Shown one piece after another: positions 1 through 20,000 of a stretch of DNA of 20,000 nucleotides. The translations under genes were made by a program, and so were the position numbers. Origin of the DNA: Rhizaria sp. SCN 62-66 (lineage: Eukaryota); the NCBI GenBank assembly GCA_001724265.1, contig MEDY01000118.1, positions 54,768-74,767 on the forward strand. Reading direction: 5' to 3'. The notes under the pieces were generated by a model, which worked only from the letters and a program-made list of their open reading frames with translations, was not told the DNA's origin and made no database searches. Each line of letters starts with the position of its first letter. Position 1 is the stretch's first letter.

Positions 1-1395
1 GGCGTGGAGCGACGCGAAGGGCTCCTTGATGGGGTGCGCCACGAGCAGGCCGGCGTCGTCGCAAAGCCCGTGGTAGTTACGGACCAGGTCGAGCGAGAGC
101 GAGACGGACGCGGCGACCTCGGCGTCGGTCGGCACGGGGCTGTGCGCGAGGTACGCCAGTAGGTCGAGTGCGTGGTCCAGCCGCGCCTGGCAGTCGCTGC
201 TGCTCACCGTCGCCAGGTCGAAGAGGTCGTGCAGCAGCGTGCGGCCGGCGCGTTCGCCCATGGCGCACGGGTCCGTCACGAGAGCCGCGGCGGACAGCAC
301 GGTCGCCGCAGAGCCGCCAGCGCCAGCGCTGTTACTGCTGTTGTTGCTGCTAAGAGATGCGATGAGCGCAGCGAGGGCCGCCAGGTCGCCGCGACGCGCG
401 GCCGACAGGAGCGAAAGGTAGATGACGACGCCCGCAGCCTCAGCGGCGGTGCGCGGCGCGCGGAAGGCAGCTGTAGCCACAGGTACGGGATCCCGCAGCG
501 CGAGCTCGCGCGCGGCGTCCTTGTCGTGTGAGCGGTAGGCCGCGATGAGGTTGCGCAGCGTCCAGCGGAAGAGCAGGCCCGCGAGCATGGCGAAAACGAT
601 AAAGCGCCACCAGTTGTCGCCGATTGAGAGCGTGGAGAACGAGTAACGCGGGCGGATAAGCGCACGTTGGAGGATGTTGCGGCGCATGTGGAGCGAGATG
701 AAACGGCGCACACGCTTGAGGGCGGCACGGAAGCGGACGTAGTTGTGGTACACTTTGGAGGGCTTCTTGACGCGGAGAATAGTCTTGTAGCCCGCCTGGC
801 GCTCGGTAGAGTAGTCAAACGTAGAGCCCTTGGCCTTGCTCTCCTCTTCGTCCTCTTCCTCTTCCTCTTCGTCGGCCTCGTCCTCCTTTGCGTCCTGCTT
901 ATTGGCGTCCTTGTTGTCCTTGTCCTTGTGGGCAGCATCATCGCCCTGCTTCTGCTGCTGCTGGAGACGGCGCGAGGACGAGTGAAAGCTAGCAGCCGCC
1001 ACCGAGACTGCGGCGGCAACTGCGGCGCGCGCAGCAGGATTGTGCTAGAGATTGCAAGGCAGAGACGCAATGTATCATAGAGAAAAAATAAAGTGAGTCG
1101 GGGTAAGGTGAGCAAGAGTGACAAGAGGATACAGCAGGCCAATATTATCGCAAATAGCGACGAGTACAAAGTATGACAAAGAACACAAGTATTAACGTCG
1201 AAATATTCCTCTTATATAACGTACAGAGAAAGGCATAGTGCCAGGGGGATGGGGGCCCATGACAACAGGCCTGACGGCGCAGGGCTTCGCACTAGGTACG
1301 CGGCAAACCTCTGCCGCACCCGCACGAAGCGCGGACACAGATGCATATTTAGACGCAGACAGAACCGCGCGCTGGAAAGCACGGGCATTATGCAT
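1..1395 (-). CDS. Uncharacterised, probably mitochondrion-targeted single-pass membrane protein with a possible ankyrin-like repeat; 2 exons visible, runs off the left window edge
   Basis: Exon 1 is 1395..1225 (MHNARAFQRAVLSASKYASVSALRAG...MPFS). A phase-0 intron spans 1224..1045. Exon 2 is 1044..1 and open with no stop (HNPAARAAVAAAVSVAAASFHSSSRRLQ...EEEEEEDEEE...WWRFIVFAMLAGLLFRWTL...LLSAARRGDLAALAALI...GRTLLHDLF...). At least 405 aa. The N-terminus is R/S/A-rich and acid-poor, ending in FHSSSRRL, which is presequence-like. There is one hydrophobic helix. Confidence 0.8.
1045..1224 (-). other. Spliceosomal intron (180 nt)
   Basis: GTACGT...pyrimidine-rich tract...CTCTAG; AT-rich; removal joins TTC TCT|CAC AAT in frame. 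Confidence 0.85.
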
Positions 1396-1851
1396 GATGT
1401 CTAAACAACCAATGTATATCGCGAGACACAAGCTCAAAGTCACTTGCTCATCACCATCAGTCCGCTCGGCCGACAGCGACCGCCGCCAGTCCAGCGAGCA
1501 TGACTGTGAGCTTGGGTCGTCATTGCTGCAAAAAGTGTGTCTATCTCGCTCGTATCATCGTCGAATTGGATAAACTTTTGATATGATGGTTTTCAGTTTA
1601 GCTCTTTTATTCTTGGCTTTTTATTAGTGTTAATTTGCTTATTAACTTTCTTGAATCGCCTTTGTGTTGACACTGCCCGTTACCACCTTCCTTCATCCAC
1701 ACCTCACGCCAACCACGACATCGCTCTATATTGCAGCATCAGCGCCTCGCCTAGACGACAAACGCACACCGCGATATTTTTGTATCCAGCCTCTAGCTCT
1801 GGTTGTCTCACATACGAGTCCTCTCCCTCATCGCTGTACTTTCGACAAGCC
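1396..1851. promoter_or_regulatory. Divergent intergenic region, probable bidirectional promoter plus 5' UTRs
   Basis: 456 nt between head-to-head ATGs (1395 minus, 1852 plus), with a T-rich core around 1570-1660. Inferred from gene geometry only; no specific element recognised. Confidence 0.45.
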
Positions 1852-2944
1852 ATGTCGGACTACGCCGAAAAACAAAAGTACGCCCCACATTCGTCGAAAC
1901 TTATCGTTCAAATCTAATAATGAATGAAATTTATTGCAATGTCTTGCATATTCAAATTATAAATATGCGATATCTCACATACAAGTTGATATCTCTTTGT
2001 TCTGTCTTGAAATCACTTGCTTCGTGCAGATGGTTCGAAGCCACCTTCAACCGGCCGCTGTCGTCCCCGCTTGACCTGTACCGCATGGCGCGCCTGCAGT
2101 ACGCTGCCGGCGCCTGGGAACTCACCGTGCAGTGCCTTGAACACTACTTTGGTACGCCATACTCTCTTTAGTCGGTTACAACCTCGCCCATGTCAATTGT
2201 ATCCGACGAACTACTCACAAACATCGTTCGCTGCTTCTCTGTCACTCTCTTGCAGCTTTAACGCCGCCCCCCTTCGACGTGGCTCCATTACACCTGCTGG
2301 CCCACGCGCAGCGCCGCCTTGCGCGCTTTACCCCGGCGCTTGAGTGCTTTACCGCCCTCGCTACCGGCTCCAACAACAACACGAACATCGCCAGCATGGA
2401 CCACAACAGCGCACTTGTAAGCGAGCTGAGCTGCGAGGCGGGCGGGTTCGACCTCGCGTGGCAGATGGCCGTGGAGACGGCGCTTGAGGCGGCTTGTGTG
2501 GCAGCCGCAGAGAAGACGGGCGGCCTGACTTCTGCTCAGAGCGGCTTGACTTCGGCGTCGGCGGAGGCGACGGAAAGGAATGCGGTGGTTGCATACATGG
2601 CAAAGCAGCCAAAATACGGCACGGGCGCTGACAGCGGCAGCGACGACGATGATGATGACGACGATGACGAGGCAGATGTATGTACGCCGCGCGTCGGTGT
2701 AAGGGGCTGCCCGGTCCCGGGTACTTACCCCGGCTGGGTCTGGACCGGCATCAACATGAATGCAAACGTGTGGCCACTCGTCGCGGACAAGCGGGCGCGA
2801 ACAGTAGCCGGCAGTAGTAGCAACGCCGACACTAACGCAGCCATTGTTAACAGTGTCAGGGCAGCTGGAGCGCAGCAGAAGCCGCGGGCGTTGCTGCCTC
2901 ATCAGGCGTCGCACTTACATAAGCCGCCTCCTGCGCAAAGTTAA
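1852..2944 (+). CDS. TPR-like helical repeat protein, 278 aa, 3 exons
   Basis: Exons 1852..1877, 2030..2151 and 2256..2944 total 837 nt (279 codons including TAA). Translation: MSDYAEKQKWFEATFNRPLSSPLDLYRMARLQYAAGAWELTVQCLEHYFALTPPPFDVAPLHLLAHAQRRLARFTPALECF...GFDLAWQMAVETALE..., then a poly-Asp tract. Two tandem ~34-36 aa units show TPR spacing. Confidence 0.8.
1878..2029 (+). other. Spliceosomal intron (152 nt)
   Basis: GTACGC...TTGCTTCGTGCAG; phase 2, AA|A TGG TTC restores Lys-Trp-Phe. Confidence 0.85.
2152..2255 (+). other. Spliceosomal intron (104 nt)
   Basis: GTACGC...CTCTCTTGCAG; phase 1, G|CT TTA joins into the frame of ORF 2279..2944. Confidence 0.9.
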
Positions 2945-3225
2945 AGCATATTGTCTTGCTGAAAATCTCTGTCTAGAACTCATGAGTTCTACTTTATATC
3001 TAGCTTTTGTAACACGATGAAATCGTGACACACAATCCGCAGTTGCATTGTTTGTCATGTCGATAAAGTCATCGCGTCCACCGATTACATTAGAACCACA
3101 AAGCATTGAGCATATGTCCTTAGTTGCAGGCAAAAATCAACACAATAAGTTCTGTATTACATCTACATAGGATACTCAAATAAACAACCAAAAATCGATT
3201 CGAATCACCGTCACAACTCACATGC

Positions 3226-6200
3226 TTATTTGCTCCCACTGGCCGTAGCGCCCAGCGCAGCCGCCGCGACGTTTGCGGCGGCCGTAGCCTGAGCCAGCCC
3301 GGCCGTGAGCAGCGTCGCCGCGAGCCGCAGGTGCGGGTGCCGCTGGCTGAGCGCGCGCCGCACCTCGGCGGTCTCCGCGTCGGCGGGCATGCGCAGCCCC
3401 GCGACCGCGGCGGCCTCGAGGGTCGCCAACACGCGCCGCAGCCGCTCCCACCAGGCCCGGCGCGCCGCGGCCGCCGCGGCCAGCGCGGACGGCGTCAGCG
3501 CGAGCGCGGCTGGGCCCGGCTGGCCCTGGCTCTGCGCGCCGCTGCCGCCGCCGCCGCCGCTGTTCGCGCTGCTGCTCGCGGCGGACACGGAGAGAGCGAG
3601 CGCGCCGGGAGGCATGGTGGCCACGGCAGCGGCGGCCGCGAGCGCCGCTGCGACCGCGCCAGAAACGGCAGTGGAGGAGCCGCTGCCGGAGCTGGAGCTG
3701 TTGAGGGGGATCGCCGATGTGGCAGTGGCCGTGGCGGTGGCAACGACGTCAACGCCGGCGTCGCCGGAGGTCAGGTAGTCGCCGAGGGCGCGGCCGAGGA
3801 TGCGCAGCGGCGACGAGGAGGAGGACGGCGACGACGACGACGATGACTGCGACTGAGACAGAGCAAGGCTCGTGCTATTGCTAGAGCTGCTGATGTTCGT
3901 GGGGGGCTGGCGGGAGGGCGAGCAAATGAGGAAGTGCAGCAAGTCTAAGGGGTCCAGCGCGAGGGCGCTTAGACTGCTGCTGCTCGTGTGGGCGCTCACG
4001 GCAGTCGTGCTCGCACCAGAGCTGACGACAGCGCCGGTCGCCGTCATGCCGACGCTCACACTCGCAGCGCTGCTGTTGTCGCCAGCGCTCGCGCTCAGCA
4101 GGACTGCTGTGTCAGCCTTGAGCGCGTTCACTGCCACCTTGACGATGTGCTCGACGACGGAGCCGGGGCCGCAAATGAGGCCCACATTCACGGGACTGCT
4201 GCCACTGAGAGCGTTGTTGTGCTCGGCAACAGCGCTGTTGGCGCTGCTCGCGCTCGTGCTCGTGTCGGCAGCAGCGAGCAGCTCGCGAACGCCCTTGAGC
4301 GTCTTGTACCCCAGCACGAACGCGTTGTTCGCAGCCGCGCTCGCACTCGCACTGCTCGCATTGCCGCGATTTGTGCTGGTGCTGCTGCTGCTGCTCGACG
4401 AAAGCGCCATCGCGCGGATCTGCGCGCGCGACATGAGCACGTCGAGCACGGTGGCCTCAACAGCGCCCAGCAGCAGCAGCAGCCGCGCGCGTCCGCCCGC
4501 CGCAGTGGGCGACAACAGACACACTGCGCGCGCCGTCGCGGCCGCCGTGGCGCGGGCGAGTCCCAGCAGTCGCGTGGCCAGGTGCGTCTGCAGCACCACT
4601 GGCAGGCGCGCGGGCCGGTACAACGGCAGCAGCGCGTGGACGAGGTGCATGCATTGCGAGCGCAGCAGCCATAGGAAGCGAGGCACCACCGCGTCCTCCG
4701 CGGAGTCGCCGCCGCTGCCTCCGTCGACCGCACCACCGGCTGGCAACGGCCCCGTAAGGCTGCTGGCACTGTGGACGTTACTACCGCTGCTGTCGCCGTA
4801 GACGTAGTGGTACGAGTCGAGGTGGATGAGCGCGACGGTGTTCTTGAGCGTGGCCGCAGCGCCCTTGACGAGGCAGCCCAGCCCCGCGGCCATTATGCCG
4901 CCGGCGCCGGCCCGCGCGGCCTCGAGCGTGGCCGCCGCGCGCGGCGACAGCGTGGGGTGCCGCGCAGCCAGCGCCGCGGGCGACAGCGCGCCGTCGACCT
5001 GCGCCGCGAGACAGAAGACGAGCGCGTTGCGGCGCTGGGCGTCGGAAGCGCCCCACACCAGCACCGACTCCTGTTCGGGCTCGGGGTCGTGGTCGTAGTT
5101 GTCGTCAGCGTCGCGCTTCTTACTGTTGATGTTGCTATTGTTATAGAGCTGCTGCTGCTGGGGCGACAGAGGGGCGAACGGCAGCGGCGCGGCGCCGATG
5201 GGCACCCAAGAGTAGCGCCCGCCCCCGCCGACGTTGCCGGTGACCGCGGCGACCGCGGCCTGCTGCAGCCCCGCGGCCTGCGCCGCCGCGGCCGCCGCCG
5301 TCGCCGCCATCGCCGCGGTGCTGGCCGTCGCGGTCACGTTGGCCGCCGCGGTCGTAGAGCCGGGATTCGCGCGCGCCACACCCGCCGCCGCCGCCGCCGC
5401 GGCCGCCGCGGTGTTGGCCGCAGGGGCCGTGGTCAGCAGGGCCTGCATGCGGCGCAGCCAGCGGTTACCGCGGTCCGCGGGCGCCGCGCCCACCCAGGGC
5501 GGCAGCACAAGCTGCAGCGCGGCCGTCGCGGCCGCGGGCGGCGTCCCGGGGGCCGGCGCCGTGGCGGCGACAACGGCGGCCGCGGGGCCCAGCACGTACG
5601 GATCGTTGCGGAGACACAGCAGCCCCTCGCAGCGCACGGAGAATAGGAACAGAGCCTTAGCAATCGACTGGCACACCAGCAGGTGCAGCGCGGGGCCGCC
5701 AAGCAGAGGCACGTCGAAGTACGATGCGGACGCAGCAGCAGCAGCGGCGGCGACGGCAGCGGCGGCGGCAGCGGCGGAGGCAGAGGCGCTGTTGGTGGTG
5801 TCGCGACCGGCCGGATCCGTAAGTGCGGTTGACGTCGGCATAGAACTCGCGTTTGCAGTACCATTGGCAGCCGGGTTGGCAGTGTTTGTACTGCTGTTGC
5901 TGGGCGGCGCGGTGGTGATGGCGCGGATGAGCGGGGTGAGCAGCAGCCCGTCGACGTCGCTCTCCTCGGCCGGCGTCAGCGGCCCGCCGTCGACGCTGCA
6001 CAGCGAGGCCACCATGGTGCCCGTGAGCTCGGTGAGGACCGAGGCGACAGAGGCCTCGCTGGGCACGGCCTCGCCCAACGAGTCCCAGTGCACAGTGCGG
6101 ATGGAGCGGCCGCTCGCGCCACTGCAAGGAGACAACGGACCAAGCAAAAGAGAGAAGACAATGAGATGTGAGATAATACAATAATGTAATAACCATGAAC

Positions 6201-9021
6201 AAAAATAAAATATTACCGCAAAGCGAGAGTATTAAGAATAAGTAAGTTCGTACCGTTCGTTGGAAGTGGCTGGTCCTGCCCTGGCAGCTGCATCGGCCGC
6301 CGTGGTCGCCTCGTCATTGGCGGCGTCAAACACGCCCATAACGAGCTTGTTCGCAGTCGCCAGTGTGTTGGCCGCGTAGACAGTCCGCGCCTCGCCGACC
6401 GCGCCCGACAGCAAGATCGACAGCAGCTCCTCGCGCAGGGCCTGGACCGAAAAACCCGCGGAAAACGCATTTTTCTTGCCCCGACCAGCGTCTGTGCCGG
6501 TGGACGCAAGCGCGAAGGCGTGCGGGGGCACTGGCAGCGCGAGCGCGGAGGCCACAAAGGCGTCGCAGGCGGCGATGAAGCGGGGAAAGTCGCCCAGCCA
6601 GGCCGTGCGCAGGAACTTGAGATTCTTGGGGACCACGGGCGCAGGCTTGCCGTGCGGGTTGTAGCCGCTGATGCCGCTGTTGTCGGCCGCGGGGGCGGGG
6701 GCGGAGACGGGGGCGCCGGAGAGGACGAGGGCCACTGTGTCGTTGAGCGAGTGCGCCCAGCGCAGCAGCAAGTCAGCGACGAACCAGCCGGAGCCGGAGC
6801 CGGGCGCGTCGCCCGCGCCGGCATTGGTGTTACTGCAGCCAGCGGCGCCGGTGGTGTAGATTGCGAGCAGCGGTGTCGTCGTCGCAGCGGCAGCGCTGTC
6901 GCCGCCGTCGCCGCCCACGCCGCCCGCGGCGCCCGCGGTGGCGCTGGCCGCGTCCGCGCGCAGGGGCGCCACAGCGGCGGAGCCCACGGTCGCCTGCAGC
7001 GCCGCGACCTGCAGCAGCCCTCGCCGCCACTCGCGCAGCCCGCGGCCGAAGGTCGCCCACACGGCGGAGCGCAGCGTTCCGCTGCCGGCAGGCGCGGCGG
7101 CAGCGGCGGCAGCGGCCGCGGCCGTGGCTGCGGAGGCGGCGGCCGCAGCGGCGGCGGCGGGCGCGGCGGCGGCGTTCGCTGCCGCTAGCGCAGTCGCGGC
7201 AGCCGCGGTGGCCGCCTCGGCCGCGGCAGCGGCCTCGCGCGCGACCGCCTCGGTCACGGCCACGCCCTCGGGCTCGGTGCCATCGCCCGCGGCCGCCGCA
7301 GCAGCCGCCGCCTCCATCGCGGCCGCCGCGCGCTCGGCCCGCGTCCGCGCCGCGGCGGCGTTAAGCTCCATGGCCTCGGCGCGCGACGCGGCGGCCGCGG
7401 CGGCCTCGGCGACGGCCTCGCTGCGCAGCGCCGCGGCCTCAGCGGCCTCCGCAGCCTCGGCGGCCGCGTCGCTGGCCTCGGCGGCCGCGGCCTGCAGCAG
7501 CGACTGCTCGGCCACAATCGCCGTGGGGTCAGCGATGCGCGCCAGCGCGGCGAGCAAACCGCTGTGCGCGCGCGCGCGGGCGTCGGTGACGGCGCAGTAG
7601 AGCTCGGCCGCCCCGCTGAACGTGCTCGGCGGCTGCGGCGGCTGCAACGCCTGCTTGCCGCTCGCCGTGACGACCACGACGGCAGACTTCTCCTCGGCCT
7701 CGGCAGAGCTGCTCCGGTTGCCATGGCGTTGCTGCAGCTGCTGCTGCTTTGCAGCATGCGCCTCGGCAGCCGCGCCGTCGAGCGCGCCCAGCGCAGTGAG
7801 CGCAGCGGTCAACATTTCGTTGTCGAAGAGCTCCAGCGCGCGCACAGCGAGTGTCCGCGCGTGGCGGGCGACGACAGCGCGCGACTTAGTGATGAAGGCT
7901 TCGTCGGGGGCCACGACGGCGACGCGGCGCAGCGCAGGCGTGCGCGCCAGCGTGCACAGCCCCTGTCGCAGCGCCAGGGCGGCGGCCAGCAGGTCCGCGG
8001 CCGTCACGGTCGCGGGGCCGGCCGCCGCGGCGACCGCGCCGCTGGCGGGGCCGCTGCCGCTGCCGTTGCTCGCGGCGGCCGCGGCTGCAGCGGCGGCCGC
8101 GGCGGCGGCGTTGCGGCTGCGGGAGAGCGCGGCGCGCACCTGTGCGGCCGAGGCGGAGACGGCGGTGCAGCCCTGTAGCAGGCGCTGCGTGGCGACAAGG
8201 TTGCGGTAGCGGCGGGCGAGCGCGGCCAGCGCGGCGTGCGGCGCGCGCACAGTTGCGGCCAGCGCCGTCACGCGCGCCGCCGCGGCCGAGAGCGCGGCGC
8301 GGGCCGCCGTAAAGCGCGCGTGGATGTCCGACAGCTCGGCGGCGTGCGACAACAGCGGTGCGTGGTGGCGGGAGGACTGGGCGCGGATGACGGCGTCGAG
8401 CTGGGAGAGCAGGGAGCGGAGCTCACTCAGCTGCACGGGCAGCGGCGGCAGGGCGCTCGCGCTCGCGGCGTCGCCAGTTGACGAGGGGATGCAGATAAGG
8501 CGGGCTTGTTCGGCGCTCAGGGTAGCGAGGCGGCGCAAAAAGTCTACAGTTTGGGAAGTGAGCAAGTGAGCAAGTGAGATTCAGAGAGACTACAACTGTT
8601 GTGTTTGGTGCTATGATATGTCCTCGAACGTACCAGGGTTGGAGCAAGAGGCGATGGCCTCAAGAACATCTGCAGAAACTGCTGTCGTATGCGCAGCAGC
8701 ACCAGAAGTCGCTGTGTTAAAGCCGGGCTCACTGTCAGACAAGGCAGAGCGAGCGTGGCTCTTACTGCTGCTGCTGCTGCTGCTGCTCCTGCTCCTGCTG
8801 GCGCTGTGGCTTATGTTTGCGTGGCCGCTATTGCTGTGAGTGACGGCGGAGTTGGCGTAGTCGTCGCCGTCGTCGTGGTCGTTGTCGTACTCCGCCTCCT
8901 CTGCTGCAGAGACGCTGCGAGCGCTGGTGGCCGCAGGTGTCCTTGAGCTAGAGCTCGGGGCAACACCGGTGCGGCTTGGGAGCGGCCCAGCTACTGTCTG
9001 GGGACCGACCGAGAGAGACAT
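3226..9021 (-). CDS. COG5: Conserved oligomeric Golgi complex subunit 5, about 1857 aa, 3 exons, with many low-complexity insertions
   Basis: Exons 9021..8634, 8543..6254 and 6121..3226 total 5574 nt (1858 codons). Collinear COG5-like blocks: QLSELRSLLSQLDAVIRAQSSRHHAPLLSHA, VRAPHAALAALARRYRNLVATQRLL, LRRVAVVAPDEAFITKSRAVV, FLRTAWLGDFPRF, SIAKALFLFSVRCEGLL, SDAQRRNALV, VALIHLDSY, VCLLSPTAAGGRARL, YKTLKGVRELL, LLHFL. Recognised from memory of the family. Confidence 0.88.
6122..6253 (-). other. Spliceosomal intron (132 nt), COG5 intron 2
   Basis: GTACGA...GTCTCCTTGCAG; phase 2, CG|T GGC joins ORF 6232..8565 to ORF 3226..6147; very AT-rich. Confidence 0.92.
8544..8633 (-). other. Spliceosomal intron (90 nt), COG5 intron 1
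   Basis: GTACGT...three CTCAC branch-like copies in a CTCACTTG tandem repeat...ACTGTAG; phase 1, G|AC TTT gives NPDFLRR. Confidence 0.88.
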
Positions 9022-9585
9022 TCTGGTGTCGCCTTCGGAAGAAGCTCAATCAGAAGCAGAAATCACTGGTTTACAATGCTGCCACGATGGCGGAAACTGG
9101 GTAGCAAAATAAGCGCTGTCTCTGCAAAGAGTGACAATGCTGCGTTGATCTGCGGTGGAAGGGAAAGTGGAGGGCAAATCTTCACGCGGGAAACAAGAAA
9201 TAATCATGGTAATGAAGTGCCAATTAAAAATTGTAATTGCATATAAGGTCTTAAACGCTGTTGTAAGCCTAAAAGTCATATTAACGTTCAATACATCGCA
9301 ATATACTCTCTTTCATTTAGCCTACTCAGCAACTTGCCCTATGACACCAGCCACGTTTTGTGTCACCTGTCGCAACTTACACAAACATGACTGCAAATCA
9401 CTGAAATTGGCACATTTCAATGCAGTTCTTCAATATACTGATTTTTTTGTATGTTTATATAGGAAAAGATTGTTTATTTATGTAAAGTCACGGATATCCC
9501 TACGCAGCAGTCGAAGGCGCTCTTATATCCCTGGCCCTCCTCACTCACATTCTCTACACGCCACAGAGTCTTGATGCAAACTAAA

Positions 9586-11348
9586 TCACTTGCGGACCAC
9601 GCCACCAACGGGCGCGGGTGCCTGGCTGGGGTCCGCAAAGATCTGGTGCTTCTCGCCCAGCTTCTTGCGCTCCAGCACTGCGTCAAGCGCGGCTGTGAGG
9701 TCGACGGAGCGCTTGAAGGCCAGCGCGAGGCACTGGTTGAGCTGGTCCTTGGTAATAGAGCAGCCGCCGGACTTCTGCAGCGCGCAGACCTCCTTGGCCG
9801 AGTTCATCGCGACGGTGATGGTGGCGTCGCACGTCAGGTCCTCGGACAGGGAAGGGTCCAGCACGATCACGCCGGCGTCTGAAACAACAACAAAACATGA
9901 TACGCGGACACATTACACAGTGTGATGATTAAAGTGAGACATAGCACAGCGTAGTATATAGTACGACTAACATAAATGTGACAAACAAAAATAATCGGAA
10001 GAAAAGTATTGGTCATGTCCGAACATCATAAATTTGTCCGAGTCAGATATGTCGTTGTTTCGCTTGGCTTCAAGACGTACCCTCGAAGACGGCAAAAGTG
10101 TTCGAGATGGGCGTGTGGTGCAGCGCCAGTGGCACGGGTTGCTGCTCGGCGGGCGGGTGCACGGTCACCGTGGTGCCCACCACGGTCACGTCGGGGCGCC
10201 GGAAGGACTTGAGGGACGCCATCGCCGCCAGCACACAGCAGTCGGTCATGTTGCCTGAGGTGGGGAGACACGAGTGAACAACGACAAAGTTAGCAAAAGA
10301 AAGGAAACATAATAGGTTCGTGAGATGGTTTTGTGGTGCCAGGTTAGAATTGTGTGTTGGTGGTGACATCACAGTGTTTGAATCGAATTTAAATATCAAT
10401 GTCAACCATTTGCGAGCAGCTGCGTACCTTCGAAGTTGGAGACGCGGATGTCGACGCGAATGGCCCAGACCTTGCTGCCCGCGAGCACGCAGAGGGTCTC
10501 AGTGTCGAGTGCGCCGGCGTCCTTGACGCATCGCTCGACCTGGGGGAGTGGGGGAAGAAACGGAACAGAGTGAAGGCACAGAGAGGAAACAAAATCAGTA
10601 TGAGTGATAGTGATCCGCCACAAATCACACAGTAACGAAAAAAATAGGTGAAGCGGTTTGCAATAGTATATCGTGCGTACCATCCTGCCGACCTCGACGC
10701 TCTTGGGCGTGGGGCGGTTAGCCTCGAAGTAGGGGCTGGCCATGGGGGAGAAGTCGACGGAGAAGGTCAGCAGGCCCTCCTCGGGGCGGTCGGGGGACGG
10801 CTCCACGAGCTCGGCAGTGACCGCCGATGTCACGCTCGTGCCGCCCATCTGTATTGCGCAGTGGTTAAATCAACATAACAAGATGACAAATAAGTAGGAG
10901 TGAGGTTGGATGAGATCTAGAGATAAGAATAGTGTGGTTGCGATCGCGTGGGTTTGGACGATGTTCTCACGATGAGGGTCTAGGGGAACGTACCGTAACC
11001 TCAGCGTCGCCAGCGTTGGTGCCAAGAGTAATAGTGGCGCGGCGGGAAGCGTTGGCGCCACGGCCGTCAACACGGAGACCTGTTTGAAGCAAGGGCACAA
11101 GCAATAGTGGAAGTGGGAAAAAGCGGGACCGTGAGTCGGGACAGCGAACGGTAGAAGCGACACAGTGACAGATAGTGACGCATTTAGGACGCAAAAACGT
11201 GCTGACATGTAAACTAGATTGTTTTACGCCAGATGATTGTGTCTAAAGTCTACAGATCCAAGATTAGTGACGTACCGGAACGGAGTGCGGCGGTGATGAA
11301 CTCGCGCTCGTTGGTCGACACGGGCCGCTCCTTGTGCAACGTAGACAT
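9586..11348 (-). CDS. RRP45: Exosome complex component RRP45 (EXOSC9), RNase PH-like ring subunit, 301 aa, 6 exons
   Basis: Exons 11348..11276, 11079..10994, 10848..10681, 10539..10428, 10254..10081 and 9878..9586 total 906 nt (302 codons). Motifs: STNEREFITAALRSGLRVDGR, PSPDRPEEGLLTFSVDFSPMASPYFE, ALDTETLCVLAGSKVWAIRVD, GNMTDCCVLAAMASLKSFRRPDVT, PVPLALHHTPISNTF, VLDPSLSE, EVCALQKSGG. FRRPDV and PL-LHH-P favour RRP45 over RRP42/43. Confidence 0.95.
9879..10080 (-). other. Spliceosomal intron (202 nt), RRP45 intron 5
   Basis: GTACGT...TTGTTGTTTCAG; phase 1. Confidence 0.93.
10255..10427 (-). other. Spliceosomal intron (173 nt), RRP45 intron 4
   Basis: GTACGC...CTAAC...CCCCACCTCAG; phase 1, restores FEGNMTD. 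Confidence 0.93.
10540..10680 (-). other. Spliceosomal intron (141 nt), RRP45 intron 3
   Basis: GTACGC...CACTCCCCCAG; phase 0. It is stop-free and a multiple of 3, so the ORF track reads through it; removal restores GRMVERCVKD. Confidence 0.9.
10849..10993 (-). other. Spliceosomal intron (145 nt), RRP45 intron 2
   Basis: GTACGT...GCAATACAG; phase 0, restores AEVTMGGTSV. Confidence 0.92.
11080..11275 (-). other. Spliceosomal intron (196 nt), RRP45 intron 1
   Basis: GTACGT...GCTTCAAACAG; phase 1, restores LRSGLRVDGR. Confidence 0.93.
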
Positions 11349-11758: not shown

Positions 11759-13878
11759 TTATAGCTCGGGGAACCCGTCCCCGCCCCGCCCCTTACCCTT
11801 CTTGCCGGCCGCACCCGCCCACGCGCCCCGCAGCGCACCGGCGCCAGAGCCAGCGCCGCTGTTAGTGTTGGCATTCGCGCCAGATCTAGACTGCGACTGC
11901 GCCTGTGCCTGCGGCTGCGGCTGCGAGGGCTGAGAGATCTCGAGCGACGCGCGCAGAGCGGCCGCGAGCTGCCAGTCGTCCTCGTCGTCGCCGTGGCCGC
12001 CCGCGTTGCCGCTGTAGCTCCCGTAGCCGGTGTTGGCGCCAGTGCTGGCGCCGCCGCCGCTCCGGATGCTGCTCGGCTTCGCGCCGCGGGCCGCCGCAGC
12101 CGCGGTCGCGGGAGAGGGCTGCCCCCTGCTGTTGCCGCTTGCACTTGCACCGCCAGCGGCAGAGCCGCTGTTGCTGGTGTTAGCGCTGTTGCCTGCGGCT
12201 GGGATCGCAGTCGACGCGTAGCCCTTGCGCACCGACACGTGCCCGCTGCCGCTGGCGTTTAGGGCAGCAACGCCAGCGTTGCCGCCGGAGCCGCCGCCGA
12301 CAACGCTGGCGACCATCGCCCCGGTCTGGTTCGCGAAAAATGCTGACCCGCCGGAGAACGAGCCTCCGCCAGCGTTGCCGTCATTCCAGCCGCCCCAATC
12401 GCCTCCGTAGCCCCCATGGCCGTGGCCGTGGCCGTGTCGGCCGCGGCCGCCGCCGCCGTGGTAGCTCGAGTTCATGGCGGCCTCGCGGTGGGCGTCGGCC
12501 ACAAAGCGGGCCTGCTTGGCCGAGTCGCCGTGCTCGCGCGCGCGCACAGAGGCCTCGGCCTCGGACACGGCGGCGGCGCGCGCGCGGGCCGCGAGGGCCA
12601 GGTAGCGCACCACGGCCGGCGGCAGCAAGCGCAGGGCGAGCGCCAGGGCGATGGCTGTCGAGTCGGGAAGACGGCGCAGAACCGAAAAAAGCGAGTGTGA
12701 GGAGCAAGACACCGCCGGCTGCTGCTGTGCAAGCGAACTGTCAGTGCTATTACTGATGCTGCAAGCACTGCTGTCGGAAACAACATCGGAGGATTGCGTC
12801 GTCGGAGTCATCGTCGTTGTTGCCACGAAAGCTGCGCCTCCCCAGCAACCGGCCCTGGCGCGCCGAACAAGCGCGGCCCGCGCGGCGTGCGCAACGAGCG
12901 GCTGCAGACACGGCAGCACGACGCTGGCCCTGGCGCACAGCGGCGCCGTCGCCAGCCCGTAGGCGCCGGAGCCGATGCCCTGTGCGCCGCCCTCGGGCGC
13001 GCGCAGCGGGGCCGAGAGCGAGCGCAGCCAGGGATCGAGCCCCGCGGCCGAGGTCGAGACGGACAGGGGCGCCAGCAGCAGCGACGACGGCAGCAGCACG
13101 GGCGAGAACGGCGCAGCGCCAGCCGCATTCACAGTGCCAGTCGCTGTCGCAGAACCGTCAGTCGCGACGCTGGCGCCATACGCGGCCTCGGCTTGCAGCA
13201 GCGCGTAACAAGTCTCCAGCGCGGCCACAGCGGGCGTAGCCAGCACTACGGGCTCCAGCGGCGACGCGCCCGCGCAAACCCAGCCCGCCGCGCCGAAGCC
13301 CGGGGCGGAGAGGCCGGCGGCGGTGAACGCGGTCGCGGGCGCGGGGGCGCGGGCCGCGGCAGGGGTCGCAGTGATGGCGCGAGATTTGCCGCTGCCGTGA
13401 CCGGTCTTGATCGCATTCGTCGCGGCAGCCATGGCCGAGAGCAGCAGCGCGTCTGCGCCAGTGTCAACAGCGACAGAGTCAGCACCAGCAGCGACGCTCG
13501 CGCCCGCGCCGCCTGAGGCCGCGTCGCCGCCGCCCCAGTGGCCGACAAGCGTGAGCGCGGCCTCGACGAACGCGCCCTCCTCCTCGGCGGGCAGCAGCTC
13601 GGGCTCGAGACTGTCTGCGTACGCCGACGGCAGCGCGGCCAGCAGCGCGATGCCCGCGGCCGTCACGGTCGTCGGCAACGGGCTGCTCCCGGCCCCGGTC
13701 GCGGCCGCAGTCGCGACGCTGCCGCTGCCGCTGCTCGCGCTGCTGAGGCTGGGGGAGAGACCGAGCGAGGGGAACGAGGGCTGCTGCTGCTGCTGCTGCT
13801 GCGAGCCGCGGCCCGCGGCAGCCAGGCGGGCGGCCATGCTCACTGCACCGCCAGCGCCAATGTTCCCGCTCAGACTGC

Positions 13879-13913
<35 letters not shown>

Positions 13914-16900
13914 TTGCTGCTGACGCTCGTAGCAGCAGAGGAGACGGAGACCGACCCCAGGCCGCCGGGCCTGCAGCGCATGGCCGACTCCACCGCCGCG
14001 GTGATCTTGGTGGCCGCGGCGTCGCGCCGGGCCGTGCGGGCGGCGCGCTGAGCGGCGGCGTCCGCGGCCGCCGCCGCGGCGGCCAGGCGAAGCGCGCGCG
14101 CGTGCGGCGCGGCGGCGGCCGCCGCGGCCGAGGGCGGCGCCAGGGTCAGGCGCGGCAGCAGCGCGGGCGGCAGGGCCGAGGCAGCGGCGGCAGCGGCAGC
14201 GACAGCGATATCCATTGTATCGTTCGCGGCGACAGAGTGACCGTCGGCAGCAGAGGCCGAGTGCGAGTGACTGTGAGCTGAGGTGACCAGAGAGTCGCCC
14301 ACCAGCAGCGTCCCGTGCCTGTGCCCACTGCGGTGCCCGCCGCTGTGACCGTGGGCAGCGGCGGAGGAGGATGCGGCGGGCGCAAGCCTGTGGGCGACCG
14401 TCGGCCAGCGGGGGCTGGTGAGTGCGGCGGCCACCGACACGACGCACGCGGCGCCCGTGTCTCCGCCCGCGACCGCACTCAAGACGCTGGCGGTGCGGGG
14501 AACATGCGCAGCAACGGGGGCGGCTGGTGCGCTAGAACGAGAAACAGCGGCAGGATAGGGGTTCGGGTAAGGGAGGTCTAGAGCGACTGAGGGGGTGACG
14601 GTGAGCAGAGGCAGGTCGATCGCCTTCAACACATATTGCGACTGCGACAGCGGGCGTTGCTGCTGTTGCTTGCCTCTAGGATTGCTACCAGTGATCGCAG
14701 ACTTAACAGCCACGGCAGAGGCAATGGTAACAGCAGCGGCGGTGGCAGCGGCAGCGGCAGCGGCGGCGGTGGCGGCGGCAGCGACTGCGGCTGCCCACGC
14801 CTGCGCCCCCACGGCGCGGACGGTACTGACGGCCGGGGTGTCGTCCGTCGCTGCAGAGCTGGCGCTGAGAGTCGCCAAAGCGGCGTCGCAGGCCGCGAGG
14901 ACGACAGACAGCACCTTATCAGCCTCCGCCGCAGCCGCAGCCGCGGCAGCGGGAGCAGCCTCGGCCTCTGCGTCAGCCACCGCCGCCGCCACCACAGCCT
15001 CCGCAGCCGCGGTCACGGCCGCCAGCGCGGGTGCGTGCGAGTGCGACTGCGAGCCGACTGGTGTGAGGATAAGGCTCTCCTCAGGGGACCAGCGGGGCGT
15101 CACCGCCGCGGCCTCGGCACACAGGGCCAGCAGCGGGGCGCGCGCGGCCGCTACAGCGGCGACAGAGGAGATAGTGCTTGCGATTATGGTGTGGTCCGCA
15201 AACGCAGCAGAGACTGAAGACGCGAGAGCCTTGACTGCGCCTACCGTCTCTGCAACATTCGCAGAGTTGAACTCGTTCTCTGTGCTCAGCAGCGAGTGGA
15301 GCGCAGTGACAGCGTCAGTCGCGGCCTTCGCCAGCTCCGGGCGAAGTCCCCCCTTAGACTGGCCAGCGCACGTAGGCACGTTCGCCGTGCTCCGAGCAGG
15401 CGACGCCGCCGCCGCAGTTGCCATCATCGCCGTCGCCGCCGCCGCAGCCTTGGCCGCCACCTCAACCGCGCCCATCACCTTGTCCTTGCTGGCTCCCCCA
15501 CTCGAGGCAGCCGCGGTGGCGGCGTCAGAGGCGGCGTCGGCGAGAGCAGATGTGAGCGGCGTCAGCGTCGTGGAGGAAAGGGAAGTCAAGCCGCCAGAGG
15601 CCTGTCGCGCCGACCGGGCGAGCGCGGCGGCGGCCGCGGCGGCAACGCGCGACGGAGGCAGTGATAGCGCAAGAGACTGCGGCAGCTGCTCTGTGTTGAC
15701 ATGGCTGCTGCTCGATAGAGCCGGAAAGCGCGGCTGCGAGGGCCAGAACATCGAGCTCGCAAACCCACTCAACGCCATCTGCCGACTCACATCGCACGCG
15801 CTCACGCGCACGCTCACGCTCGGGGCTGCAGCCACATCAGCGCCCTCCGCACTGTTGCTCAGAGAGTGGCCCAGATCGGCGCACGTGACCATGGGCAGCA
15901 GGGGCGCGCGCGCGGGCAGCGCCGGGCCGAGCGCGGGCAGCGCGCGCGAGAAGAGCAGCGGCCGGCCGACGGGCGCGGCGCCGGGCAGCCCGGAGGCCAC
16001 GGCGGCCGTCGCCAGCGACCGCGTCAGCGACGCCAGCGGCGACGCGGTGGCGGCGCCGTCCGCAGTGGCAGCGTGCTTGAGCGCTGCGGGGCCTGCAACG
16101 AGGGCCATCAGAGTCGCCGCACTGCTTGCATCAGTTGAGCTCAAGGAGCAAGCAATAGCAGTAGAGCTCCCTCCAGCACCAGCGCCAGCGCCAGCGCCAG
16201 CACCATGATGCTGACACTTACTGACAGCAGTCGTGATCTGGCCTCTGCCACAGGCATCACCGCCGTCGCCGTCGCCGTCGCCGTGGTAGTCCAGCGCGGC
16301 GTCGCCGTCCGCGACCGTGAGCGTGACCGGCCGGAGGTCGCCCACGGTCACCACCTCGGCGCAGAGCGGGCAGTCGGCCGCCGGCAGCGTCTCAAGCCGC
16401 AGCGGCGCCAGCGGGGTCGACAGCAACCGCGCCAGCCGCGGCAGACCCAGCGACAGCGGGCTCGCGTCGGGCGCGTCGCGCAACACGCCGACACCGCTAC
16501 TGCCACTGTTGCTGTTAACACCGCGCGCAGGCACTGCGACGATACCGCCGGCGCCGCTGGCCGCGCCCCCCGTGGCTGCGGAGGCCCAGGCGCGGCTGGC
16601 GCGCTCCTGCCGCGCCGCCTCGGCCGCCACGGCCCGCCGCCGGTGCGCGCCCGCGGGCGTGCCCTCGGCCAAACTCGCACTGGCGCTCGCGCTCGCGCTC
16701 GCGCTTGAGGTGTTTGCGGGCGTGCTGGGGACGGCGGCGCGCGAGAGCAGCTGGAGCGCGCACGGCAGGCAGTACACGTGGCCGCGCGGGGTCGCCACGG
16801 GCGCGCGCGGCGGCGACAGCAGGCAGAGCGGGCAGCGCGGCAGCGCGGCGGGGGCCGGCACGGGCAGCGTCAGCGCGCGCACGGCGTGCCAGGGCGGGGT

Positions 16901-18656
16901 GAGGTCCAGCGGCACGGGCAACGCAGGCATCAGCAGCAGCAGCGTCAGGTAGTGGCGCAGGCGGGACAGCAGCGCCACTGACGGCAAAAACGACGACGAT
17001 GACTGCGCAGTTGCTGTCGACGTCGAGATCAGGGGGAACTGCATCGGACGCAACACCGACCGCAGCACACCGCCAGTCTGCGCAGAGCCGCTGCGAGCGT
17101 GACTGGCGCCAACCGCGGTCACCAGCGCGGCCTCGAGCGCCGTGGCCGCGGTGGCCTTAAGCCCGCCGCGGTGCTCGCAGTCGCTCGCGGCGGCCAGCGA
17201 CGCCGCCGCGGCAGCCGCCAGCGCAGCCGCGGCAGCCGCAAAGAGCCGGGTCTCGCCGACGCCGCTGGACTGCAGCTGCAACTGCGACTGGGACAGAGCC
17301 TGCGGCTGCGCGTGCGAGTGCGGGCGCGACAGGCTCGGGGTAGAGCTCATGTGGGGGCTGGCACAGTTGCTGTTCAGTGAAAACGACGCGCCCGGGCCGA
17401 AGGTGGAGCCGCCGCACGCTGCCGTGGCCGCAGCAGCGGCCGCCCAGTCCGGCAGCCCGCTCGCCGCACTGGCACCGCTGGCGCTGGCGCTGGCGGCGGC
17501 GGCGGCCGAGAGGTCGGGCGGGGAGAAACAGGGGTCGAGCAAGTACGGCGTCGTGATGGCGGCGGCGCGGGCGAAAGCACCGGCCTCCGCAGCGGCCGCA
17601 GCCGCAGCGCTATTGCCGCCAGCAACCGCGGTCGCAGCGGAAGCAGCAGCGGAGGCGGAGAGCGCGTAGGTGTGGAAGAACCCGCAGTGGGTAAGCAGCG
17701 GCAGCGTTTGCGCCAGCAGCCGAACGGCGGCGACGCCGGGGCCGGCCGCGTCAACCAGACTCGGGCTCGGGCTGCTCGCAGCGCTCTCAGACTCGGTCTT
17801 CGAGTGGCTGTGAGCGCCGACGGACTGACTGTGGGCAAAGGCGGCCGCGAGGGCCGCGCCCATGGGCGCGACGGCCGCGGCAGGCAGCAGCGAGCCGACG
17901 GAGGGCGCGGCGCCCAGGAGCGCGGGGAAAGCAGTCTCAGCGGTCGCGGCGGTCGCGGCCGCGGTCGCAGCGGCGGCGGCAGCGGCGGCAGTGACGTCGG
18001 CCTCGCTTGCACTCGCGCTCGTCGTTTTGACGCTCGTGGTCGAGCCAGTGATCGCGTTCTCTGTCGAGAGCGCGGCGGCGGCGACGGCGGCAGCGACGCG
18101 GGCGGGCGCGTCGGCCGCGGTCAGCAAGCCGGCCAGCGCACCCACGGTCACCCTCGCGCCGCCGAAGGCCAGCGACGCGCCCTTAGATCCTGCGCACTTA
18201 GACTGACCACTCTGCTGCTGCTGCTTGCTCTTCTTGCCCCCAGCAGTGGCGGCACCGCCGTCACTGGCGGCACTGCTGTTGCTGCTGGCGAGCGCCGCGG
18301 CGGCGGGCTCCCACGCGAGCGCGAGCGCGGCGGCGGCCCACCGCAGACGCGCCTCAGCCACGGCCTCTGCCAGCAGCGCCAGCAGCAGGCGCGCGCGCGC
18401 GTCGGCCAGCGCCAGCGCCAGCACGGCCACCGCCGACACCGAGGGATCGCGCCCGCGCCACTGCGCCGCGCGCGACTGCGGCAATGGGGGCGGCGCGGAC
18501 GGGGACTGCAACTGGGACTGTGAGATCCAAGCGAGGGCGGCGGGGACGGAGGTCAGGGGCTGCGGGCAGTCTAAGGGGGGCAGCAGTGCCGGCGCGGTCT
18601 TGAAGTACTTGGCCATGGCAGCCGCGCTACTGATGCTTGACTGCGACTGAGACTGA

Positions 18657-18687
<31 letters not shown>

Positions 18688-20000
18688 ACTGGGACTGGGA
18701 CTGAGACTGACACACGAGGCGCTTGGGCGGCGCGGCGCTGATCAGTGCGACGACCGCAGACAGCACTGGGGCCAGCGCGGCCTCTGCCGCGGCCTCTGCA
18801 GCAGACTCGACCTCGGCTTCAGTGACAACATCGTCCGCATCTGAGCCGATGATGTTCTTATCAGTCTTGGCCTCGCTCTCTTCGCTGTGAGCAATCGCAT
18901 TCTTGTTACTCTTGGAGCTAGCCTTCTTGCAAGCACTGTTTATGGTCTTGATGATGGGCAAGGGAGCTTCTAAGGGTGGCGCCTCATGTAAGTGATTCCC
19001 AAGCACAACGCCTAAGTAGTCCCCCTCCGAATCCAAGTACCCCGGAGACGCCTGCTTACTCAAAGACGCCGAAACCTCGCTCGCGCTTGCGCGTGCGTTT
19101 GCATCGCGCGCCGCAGCTGCGGGCGAGGCCACGACGCTCGCGAGCGCAGCCAAGGCTTCGGCGTCGCCCCGCAGCCCCCGCAGACCGGCCAGCCTGAGCG
19201 CCACAGCCGTGGCCGCCACCGCCGCCGCCACCGCCCCGGCGCCAGCGCCCGGAGCCGAGGACGTGGCCGTGGCGGCGGAGCCGGCGGCGGGGCCGGCGGG
19301 GCCGAGGGGGCCGACAGGGCCCAGCCAGGAGGGCTGAGCACCGCCGCTGCTGTTGCTGCCCCAGAGGGGAGCTGGGGTCGGCGCAGGCGCGGCCGCAGCC
19401 CCAGCGGCAGCGCTGGCGTGGGAGCCGCCGCTGGCGCTGGCGCTGAGAGGAACGCGGGCGAGCGCGGCCGCATTGCTGTTGCTGTCGAGGCTGGCGCCCG
19501 CTGTGACTGTTGTCGGCTCAAGCGATTGTGGATGTGGCTGCGCAAGAGCAGGACACAGAGAAGCGCCAAATTCTGATGCAGGGGGCACGACAATCGCGAC
19601 GTTAGCGTCGGTCGCAGCGTTGCGGTCAGAAAGAGAGCTCGAGCTCGAGCTCGAACTTGATGTCGTCGAGTCACCCGCGTTGCGCGTATCAGCGCTGCCG
19701 ACAGCGGCAGCCGCAGTTTCTGCCGCGAGCCACAGTTGCGCGCCCCAAACGACCCCCGCGGCCGTCGCGGTCGCCGCGCAGCCGGCCCCGCCGCCTGCGC
19801 CGCCCCCGCTCGCAGCGCCGCTGCCCGCGCCGCCGGGGCCCTCGTGCACGCCCAGCAGCACGGCGGCGACGGCGGCGGCGGCGGGCGCGGCCGCGTGCGC
19901 CGCAACCCACTCGGTGTCGATCGCGACGCACGCACGCACCGGCAGCGCGAACGACGCCGCGGCCGCCGCGGCGGACTCGGAGGCTGCGGCGGCCGCGGCC
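11759..20000 (-). CDS. Giant (>2740 aa) Ala-rich RING-finger protein, RNF10/Mag2-like E3 ubiquitin ligase, with C-terminal UIM; 5' end lies outside the window
   Basis: One stop-free frame runs from the right edge to TAA at 11761..11759; the GTG start at 19939 is an artefact because the frame is open upstream. It contains PPWHAVRAL...CPLCLLSPPRAPVATPRGHVYCLPCALQLL...CPLCAEVVTVGDLRPV, an RNF10-type RING with its upstream W motif and downstream DL-x-x-V. A later weakly RNF10-like block is VLRRLPDSTAIALAL. The UIM is DDEDDWQLAAALRASLE and the basic tail is GKKGKGRGG. The CDS is secure; orthology is only moderately supported. Confidence 0.75.
13875..13921 (-). repeat. Coding trinucleotide repeat (AGC/AAC)n giving a Ser/Asn tract
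   Basis: The plus strand is a CTG/TTG run, encoding SSNNSSNSNSNSSSSS. Similar runs lie near 8765-8799 and 13781-13801. Confidence 0.85.
18639..18710 (-). repeat. Coding hexanucleotide microsatellite, 12 units, encoding (Gln-Ser)12
   Basis: The plus strand shows tandem GACTGA/GACTGG units; the translation is [26 protein letters not shown]. Confidence 0.95.

Follow-up and report, generated by a model that had tools for sequence, protein, structure and literature searches.

Ten introns with an invariant GTACG donor in a 20-kb window from an uncultured eukaryote: standard or altered splicing RNAs?

Introduction

Does a 5′ splice site (donor) with a fixed C at intron position +4 call for a change in the small nuclear RNAs (snRNAs) that read it? 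The question is raised by contig MEDY01000118.1 of assembly GCA_001724265.1, deposited as Rhizaria sp. SCN 62-66, of which positions 54,768 to 74,767 of the forward strand were analysed (20,000 nucleotides, nt; hereafter the window, numbered from 1). A sequence-only reading of this stretch had listed ten introns that all begin with GTACG and had taken the +4 C to predict compensatory changes in U1 (ACGUAC) and/or U6 (ACGGA), or else loss of METTL16/SNRNP27K. The reading favoured here, with a probability of about 0.5, is that the lineage has uniform splice signals of its own, while U1 and U6 would be standard and +4 C would be a tolerated mismatch.

Ten Introns with GTACG Donors

The introns are named after genes A to D and listed with strand, length, donor, acceptor, share of guanine plus cytosine (GC) where determined, and CTCAC motifs.

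Intron A1, 1045–1224, minus strand: 180 nt, donor GTACGT, acceptor TAG, GC 0.39; CTCAC at 1112–1108 and 1097–1093.
Intron B1, 1878–2029, plus strand: 152 nt, donor GTACGC, acceptor CAG, GC 0.34; CTCAC at 1974–1978; frame restored in phase 2.
Intron B2, 2152–2255, plus strand: 104 nt, donor GTACGC, acceptor CAG; CTCAC at 2214–2218; frame restored in phase 1.
Intron C2, 6122–6253, minus strand: 132 nt, donor GTACGA, acceptor CAG, GC 0.34; CTCAC at 6172–6168.
Intron C1, 8544–8633, minus strand: 90 nt, donor GTACGT, acceptor TAG, GC 0.44; three CTCAC with 8-nt spacing at 8578–8558.
Intron D5, 9879–10080, minus strand: 202 nt, donor GTACGT, acceptor CAG; CTCAC at 9938–9934; junction colinear with relatives.
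Intron D4, 10255–10427, minus strand: 173 nt, donor GTACGC, acceptor CAG; CTCAC at 10324–10320, and CTAAC 35 nt before the 3′ splice site; junction colinear with relatives.
Intron D3, 10540–10680, minus strand: 141 nt, donor GTACGC, acceptor CAG; no CTCAC, has CTCAT, CTGAT and TTCAC; junction colinear with relatives including P0001.
Intron D2, 10849–10993, minus strand: 145 nt, donor GTACGT, acceptor CAG; CTCAC at 10904–10900; junction colinear with P0003, P0004, P0006, P0008 and P0045.
Intron D1, 11080–11275, minus strand: 196 nt, donor GTACGT, acceptor CAG; CTCAC at 11135–11131; junction colinear with the same five proteins as D2.

Reading of the window letters bore out every donor of the sequence-only reading, including the sixth letters: GTACGT, the commonest hexamer (5/10), at 1224, 8633, 10080, 10993 and 11275, GTACGC at 1878, 2152, 10427 and 10680, and GTACGA at 6253. 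Positions +1 to +5 read GTACG in 10/10 introns, with +3 A, +4 C and +5 G each invariant; position −1 was G in 8/10, and +6 was T in five, C in four and A in one. All introns had GT..AG ends, with CAG acceptors in eight and TAG in two, and ranged from 90 to 202 nt (mean 151.5) with a GC of 0.34–0.48. They were found, as had been claimed, in four unrelated genes on both strands (A, C and D on the minus strand, B on the plus strand) with the frame restored in all ten, and the joined coding sequences of these genes contained no stops and were divisible by three in length. The introns are ordinary U2-type (major) GT-AG spliceosomal introns. The consensus of U12-type donors is of an extended RTATCCTT type, and a U12-type assignment was rejected, as all ten donors read GTACG followed by T, C or A.

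The pentamer itself was not enriched in the window, where 24 copies were counted compared to 28.8 ± 6.1 in shuffles. Ten of the 24 were placed exactly at sense-strand exon–intron boundaries, so that the signal lies in the placement. Five more sense-strand copies stood unspliced in exons of genes B, C and E (the gene E copy at 13622), and thus the pentamer alone is insufficient as a donor. Avoidance of GTACG in exons was considered and rejected: synonymous shuffling gave an expectation of 8.9 sense copies compared to the five present, a difference short of significance (P = 0.058). A plus-strand GTACG at 1296, in the spacer between genes A and B, is followed by GC-rich sequence and was not counted as an intron.

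As a control for motif selection, all GT..AG pairs that preserve the frame without a stop were enumerated over ±30 nt around each boundary. Only one to nine such pairs were found per intron, and for B2 and D5 the GTACG pair was the sole option. Three alternatives were present for each of A1 and B1 and two for each of C1 and C2, the donor of C2 being identical in both. For A1, frame restoration links a 12-codon first exon (1260–1225) to a long open reading frame (ORF) at 1044–1; C2 is an island of 3n length that contains an in-frame stop and separates two long ORFs sharing one frame, and C1 is likewise a 3n-length island holding an in-frame stop.

With 10/10 donors, the one-sided 95% lower bound on the share of GTACG among the donors of the organism was 0.74 (0.05^(1/10)), and from this window a genome-wide GTACG bias appears probable. 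The other possibility is that the window is a local or sampling outlier in a genome whose donors are GTANG- or GTRAG-like with a mixed +4 position. In its favour, only ten introns in 20 kb were examined, and region-specific splice signals are described in the available literature on Ostreococcus and Micromonas (compare the atypical chromosomes of Mamiellales). However, 10/10 would arise with P = 0.006 at a true share of 0.6 and 0.03 at 0.7, the introns are spread over four unrelated genes and both strands, and a further uniform signal, CTCAC in 9/10 introns, agrees. We therefore regard an outlier as improbable.

A full-text search that did not extend to logos in figures and supplements (the Thecamonas logo among them) turned up no paper that gives GTACG as the donor consensus of a whole genome, and a search of the literature on Rhogostoma, Rhizaria and CTCAC found nothing on donors. 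A lead to GTACG donors in Cafeteria was rejected, since GTACG occurred there only within a primer.

Evidence for Splicing

Gene D encodes an Rrp45-like protein, and its spliced product of 300 amino acids (aa) could be aligned to eight relatives (P0001, P0002, P0003, P0004, P0006, P0008, P0010 and P0045) with all five junctions free of gaps. P0001 was 77% identical over 239 columns. Other GT..AG pairs at these junctions would insert or delete 2–7 residues. At the level of protein alignment, the five gene D introns are thus confirmed through gap-free colinearity with relatives. For A1, B1, B2, C1 and C2 the only basis was frame restoration across stop-holding AT-rich islands (GC 0.34–0.48, compared to 0.62–0.73 in coding sequence).

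Database calls at this gene differ in how they treat the introns. P0052, a 148-aa call at 10405–10869 on the minus strand found on six contigs (the longest of 71,388 bp), reads through intron D3. P0001 and P0002 were called as unbroken ORFs across the positions of D3 to D5, P0002 beginning directly after the D2 position; they are either transcripts or relatives without these introns.

Transcript evidence was in the form of assembled contigs, and most of the listed joints lay in GC-rich repeats with sides shorter than 30 nt and were disregarded. Among the joints listed, one exact intron skip was found for the ten introns. A 195-nt contig of library X10 (record 6) lies on 10168–10253 and 10427–10535 and skips exactly the 173 nt of D4, with a 1-nt ambiguity at the joint due to a C on both flanks. 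This library is labelled as complementary DNA but was marked as probably DNA, and the contig is either spliced RNA or an intron-less copy; either fits an intron with the ends of D4. Contigs of the polyA-RNA run X6 were unspliced through parts of D4 and D1 (10267–10432 and 10985–11202; records 30 and 31), which could be retained introns or DNA carried into an RNA library. Contigs of X4 were continuous across introns and spacers and behaved like DNA. They showed 25 listed differences from the window, six of them intronic (1188, 1189, 1208, 1950, 1963 and 11214) and none in GTACG or CTCAC, a comparison without power because only about 0.4 motif hits were expected.

Branch Motif, Intron Bodies and Intron Density

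The sequence-only reading had described the branch sites as loose, and this did not hold. CTCAC occurred in 12 copies in 9/10 introns (all except D3), and none of 2000 shuffles reached either count. The motif favoured the sense strand, with 12 sense copies in introns compared to one antisense copy. It fits the YTNAY rule, with a C adjoining the presumed branch A, a position at which the yeast branch consensus has A. The presumed branch A stood 15–66 nt before the 3′ splice site, and 38–66 nt in eight of the nine motif-bearing introns. Judged from motif and position, CTCAC is likely the branch site, and it would be unusually far from the acceptor.

Apart from these motifs the intron bodies were dissimilar, in agreement with the earlier description: the best pairwise local alignment score was 22, compared to shuffled maxima of 14–23. 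Since the bodies are dissimilar and the host genes are four unrelated ones on both strands, the shared motifs are signals and not marks of common descent. This bears on a possible origin of the introns by the recent spread of an introner-like element, with GTACG and CTCAC inherited from it. Both motifs are indeed common to the introns, and the mean pairwise score was slightly above that of shuffles (13.2 compared to 10.7). However, the best pair fell inside the shuffled range, no common body sequence was found and the lengths are spread over 90–202 nt, and we consider such an origin very unlikely indeed.

The gene set had also been called intron-rich, which is arguable. The coding sequence amounts to 16,629 nt, so that ten introns give 0.60 per kb, and gene E has none in 8.2 kb. 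The five genes, of which two are truncated by the window ends, average two introns each; this density is intermediate, not poor. Cafeteria, with 1.7–1.9 introns per gene, is close to this value. The 2.5–3.4 introns per gene of Mastigamoeba place the window somewhat lower, going by the available text of Roy & Bowser (2022; bioRxiv 10.1101/2022.06.08.495308) and Zarsky et al. (2021; PMC8136499).

Standard or Altered snRNAs

A search of the window with Rfam models at E ≤ 1 found no snRNA, and only two sub-threshold microRNA-like matches. Paired with standard U1, GUACGU matches at each of its six intron positions except +4, which is the geometry of the yeast donor GUAUGU.

We propose that the core signals were homogenised in this lineage, giving a G/GUACGY donor and a CUCAC branch motif mostly 38–66 nt upstream of a YAG acceptor. 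U1 and U6 would keep their standard arms, with +4 C tolerated as a mismatch as in Thecamonas and Mamiellales, and specificity would be supplied by protein factors and by the pairs that are left (−1 G, +1 to +3 and +5). If the GTACG bias is genome-wide, standard snRNAs seem slightly favoured, because compensation is absent from two of the three +4 C lineages published.

Several points weigh against this proposal. A single 20-kb window supplied all ten introns, and the part concerning standard snRNAs would draw solely on precedent. Neither pairing with standard U1 nor the ACAGA box of U6 explains a strict invariance of +4 C. In a nearest-neighbour computation with an 8-nt U1 arm, the ten donors reached a mean of only −3.9 kcal/mol with the standard arm, which gave −5.5 kcal/mol for a yeast-type donor and −9.3 kcal/mol for a canonical donor. 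Moreover, Mastigamoeba, the sole +4 C lineage described with a changed U1, has an intron density near the roughly two per gene of the window.

A rival possibility is that U1 has co-evolved, with a 5′ arm ACGUAC that would place a G opposite +4 C and pair fully, in Watson–Crick fashion, with GUACGU. With such an arm the computed mean for the ten donors changed from −3.9 to −9.4 kcal/mol; these energies are the gain that compensation would bring, not proof of its occurrence. The invariance of +3 A, +4 C and +5 G fits such an arm, while +6 T in just 5/10 means that the outer pair is not kept. The same variant, ACGUAC, is given as the U1 candidate of Mastigamoeba balamuthi in the available text of Roy & Bowser (2022). 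The genome of this species, with a GC of 60.7%, a mean intron of 137 bp and about 2.5–3.4 introns per gene, resembles the window (GC 0.668, mean intron 151.5 nt) in the figures available from Zarsky et al. (2021; PMC8136499). Entamoeba provides a second case of a co-evolved U1: its donors read GUUUGU and the U1 arm is altered to match, with the ACAGA box kept, according to the same portion of Roy & Bowser (2022).

However, Thecamonas trahens and five Mamiellales prefer +4 C with a standard U1 arm in that account, so that two of the three published +4 C lineages keep standard U1. The claim that +4 C predicts a compensatory snRNA change is thus reasonable, with an exact precedent in the M. balamuthi candidate and counter-examples in T. 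trahens and Mamiellales, and a fixed +4 C alone does not predict compensation. The available text of Roy & Bowser (2022) further reports no U1 change in 69 Saccharomycotina preferring +4 U, and terms the missing U1 change in +4-pyrimidine lineages a mystery.

The phylogenetic position of the organism also speaks against a U1 shared with Mastigamoeba. The gene D protein search returned 81 Rrp45-like relatives in the protein database, and a quick maximum-likelihood tree was built from 39 rows, the window protein and 38 of these matches; the 43 rows left out were near-duplicate fungal sequences, fragments below about 200 aa (P0052, from the window itself, among them) and most Rrp42-like sequences. 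The window protein fell into a 21-row clade (Shimodaira–Hasegawa-like approximate likelihood ratio test, SH-aLRT, 98) that took in every cercozoan-labelled row and lay apart from the fungal and animal ones. The organism thus groups with cercozoan-labelled rows and not with amoebozoans, and an ACGUAC arm would need an independent origin here. On the evidence of this protein, the organism appears not to be an opisthokont and is possibly a member of Rhizaria, a weak placement because the match list held no other protist group beyond the cercozoan-labelled rows. Taken together, a co-evolved U1 is possible, and we hold it to be the less likely course.

A change in U6 instead of U1, with ACGGAGA in place of ACAGAGA, would also pair with +4 C. 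A natural U6 altered in this way is not known to us. In the available text of Parker et al. (2023; PMC10581693), donor position +4 faces the middle A of the ACAGA box; a G in place of this A would pair with C. The background given in the sequence-only reading on position +4, U6 N6-methyladenosine (m6A), METTL16 and SNRNP27K agrees with that text, in which a +4 A/U switch is linked to METTL16 and SNRNP27K; as far as available, it treats A/U switches only. Because the ACAGA box is retained even in Entamoeba with its transformed donors, a U6 change is considered highly improbable.

Comparison with Known Systems

The genomes of Thecamonas and Mamiellales are GC-rich. The finding joins a known class, that of lineage-specific homogenised splice signals with a +4 pyrimidine, with one majority donor motif (GTACG, 10/10) and a homogeneous branch motif (CTCAC, 9/10) in the window. 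The literature comparisons that follow are drawn from the portions of the cited sources that were available.

Mastigamoeba balamuthi resembles the window in an invariant-looking +4 C, an intermediate intron density, a GC-rich genome and introns of about 140 nt, and its U1 candidate ACGUAC is the exact complement of the window donor GUACGU. It differs in its GUGCGC donors, with +3 G compared to GUACGY in the window, and in being an amoebozoan, whereas the Rrp45 protein of the window groups with cercozoan-labelled rows. Thecamonas and Mamiellales (Micromonas, Ostreococcus and Bathycoccus) share with the window donors a strong lineage-wide preference for +4 C. The Mamiellales donors are GYGCGY or GTGCGTG, with +3 G compared to +3 A in the window. 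Ostreococcus has, besides GTGCGTG donors, a homogeneous branch motif, GACTGACG, where CTCAC is found here (Irimia & Roy, 2008; PMC2483917). The same paper ties low intron number to strong consensus signals and raises a matching snRNA change as a question.

Saccharomyces cerevisiae, with GUAUGU and UACUAAC, likewise shows a near-invariant donor and branch site and a +4 pyrimidine that mismatches standard U1; it is far more intron-poor than the window. In yeast, +4 U and the middle A of the U6 ACAGA box can form a pair, and the preference for this U has been associated with METTL16 and SNRNP27K having been lost (Parker et al., 2023; PMC10581693). No such pair is open to +4 C. Entamoeba has a transformed, near-universal donor and is the clearest case of an snRNA following the splice site (U1 AACAAAC). 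Its motif, with +3 U and +4 U in an AT-rich and intron-poor genome, differs from GUACGY, and its branch-to-acceptor distance is constrained, compared to 15–66 nt here.

Genes of the Window and Origin of the Contig

Five genes were modelled in the window, with exons joined by coordinates.

Gene A, 1–1260, minus strand: at least 360 aa, two exons, one intron; truncated at the window start.
Gene B, 1852–2944, plus strand: 278-aa orphan protein, three exons, two introns.
Gene C, 3229–9021, minus strand: 1856-aa alanine-rich protein, three exons, two introns.
Gene D, 9589–11348, minus strand: Rrp45-like exosome subunit (RNase PH fold), 300 aa, six exons, five introns.
Gene E, 11762–19999, minus strand: single alanine-rich ORF of more than 2746 aa, no introns; truncated at the window end.

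Only gene D has a clear family. Its Pfam matches to RNase_PH (E 8e-7) and RNase_PH_C (E 5e-17) each lie on a single exon, and its relatives are named exosome component RRP45 in the protein database; the protein atlas assigned it to the family only, without a lineage. The Pfam search gave no family above cutoff for genes A, B, C and E, and the start of gene C exon 2 showed weak COG5_N-like similarity under the cutoff. For gene B the sole match in a search of a 5.8-billion word index was its own protein, and gene C exon 3 (3229–6120, 963 aa) had no match among 1.84 billion cluster representatives (E ≤ 0.001). This exon and gene B (2258–2941) look like lineage-restricted or fast-evolving low-complexity proteins. 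Gene E carries many short coding repeats, such as a GACTGG/GACTGA run at about 18640–18710. Genes A (minus) and B (plus) are divergent across a shared AT-richer spacer of about 590 bp (1261–1851) that looks like a bidirectional promoter region. The stop codons read were TAA, TAA, TGA and TAA, and thus there was no sign of a non-standard code. A transfer RNA search of the window found none.

The window has a GC of 66.8%, with coding sequence at 0.62–0.73 and AT-richer introns and spacers. It was present in public metagenome runs from bioreactors, wastewater, activated sludge and microbial fuel cells, and three DNA runs (X1–X3) carried 95–98% of its sampled words (share 0.95–0.98). Given these sources, the contig is from an uncultured eukaryote. 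A scan of metagenome contigs yielded one contig of 2744 bp (L001), identical to window positions 8227–10970 and adding no new DNA, and scans of genome contigs and viral contigs found no relative of the window.

The closest Rrp45 matches were metagenome proteins, with 67% identity to the last exon and with 57% and 51–53% identity to P0001. The best named matches were chlorarachniophytes, Bigelowiella and Cercozoa sp. M6MM (42–45%), compared to 43–44% for Mortierellomycota. One further protein, P0028, is a eukaryote-type RRP45 of 408 aa, 43% identical to P0001, that carries the NCBI label of a metagenome-assembled genome of a Dehalococcoidales bacterium; it probably stems from a eukaryotic contig that was placed in a bacterial bin.

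Biological Meaning

The finding bears on how a splice-site consensus and the snRNAs that read it evolve jointly. Three +4 C lineages are described in the available text of Roy & Bowser (2022), split two to one on whether U1 has followed, and a fourth would be an extra data point. Its value as a fourth lineage lies in a GUACGY donor that perfectly complements the sole variant arm known, in a second uniform signal, CUCAC, and in a moderate intron load. There are practical consequences as well: prokaryote-style gene calling on metagenome contigs of this kind gives chimeric exon–intron–exon proteins, of which P0052 is an example, and we infer that eukaryote gene finders trained on GTRAGT would likely mis-model these genes. 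Tentatively, a non-amoebozoan protist with an ACGUAC U1 would represent an independent second origin of this arm, maybe with a matching change in U2 for CUCAC, where a C takes the place of the purine usually found beside the branch A. An ACGUAC U1 in this organism would mean that splice signals and snRNA have co-evolved across a whole genome with about two introns per gene.

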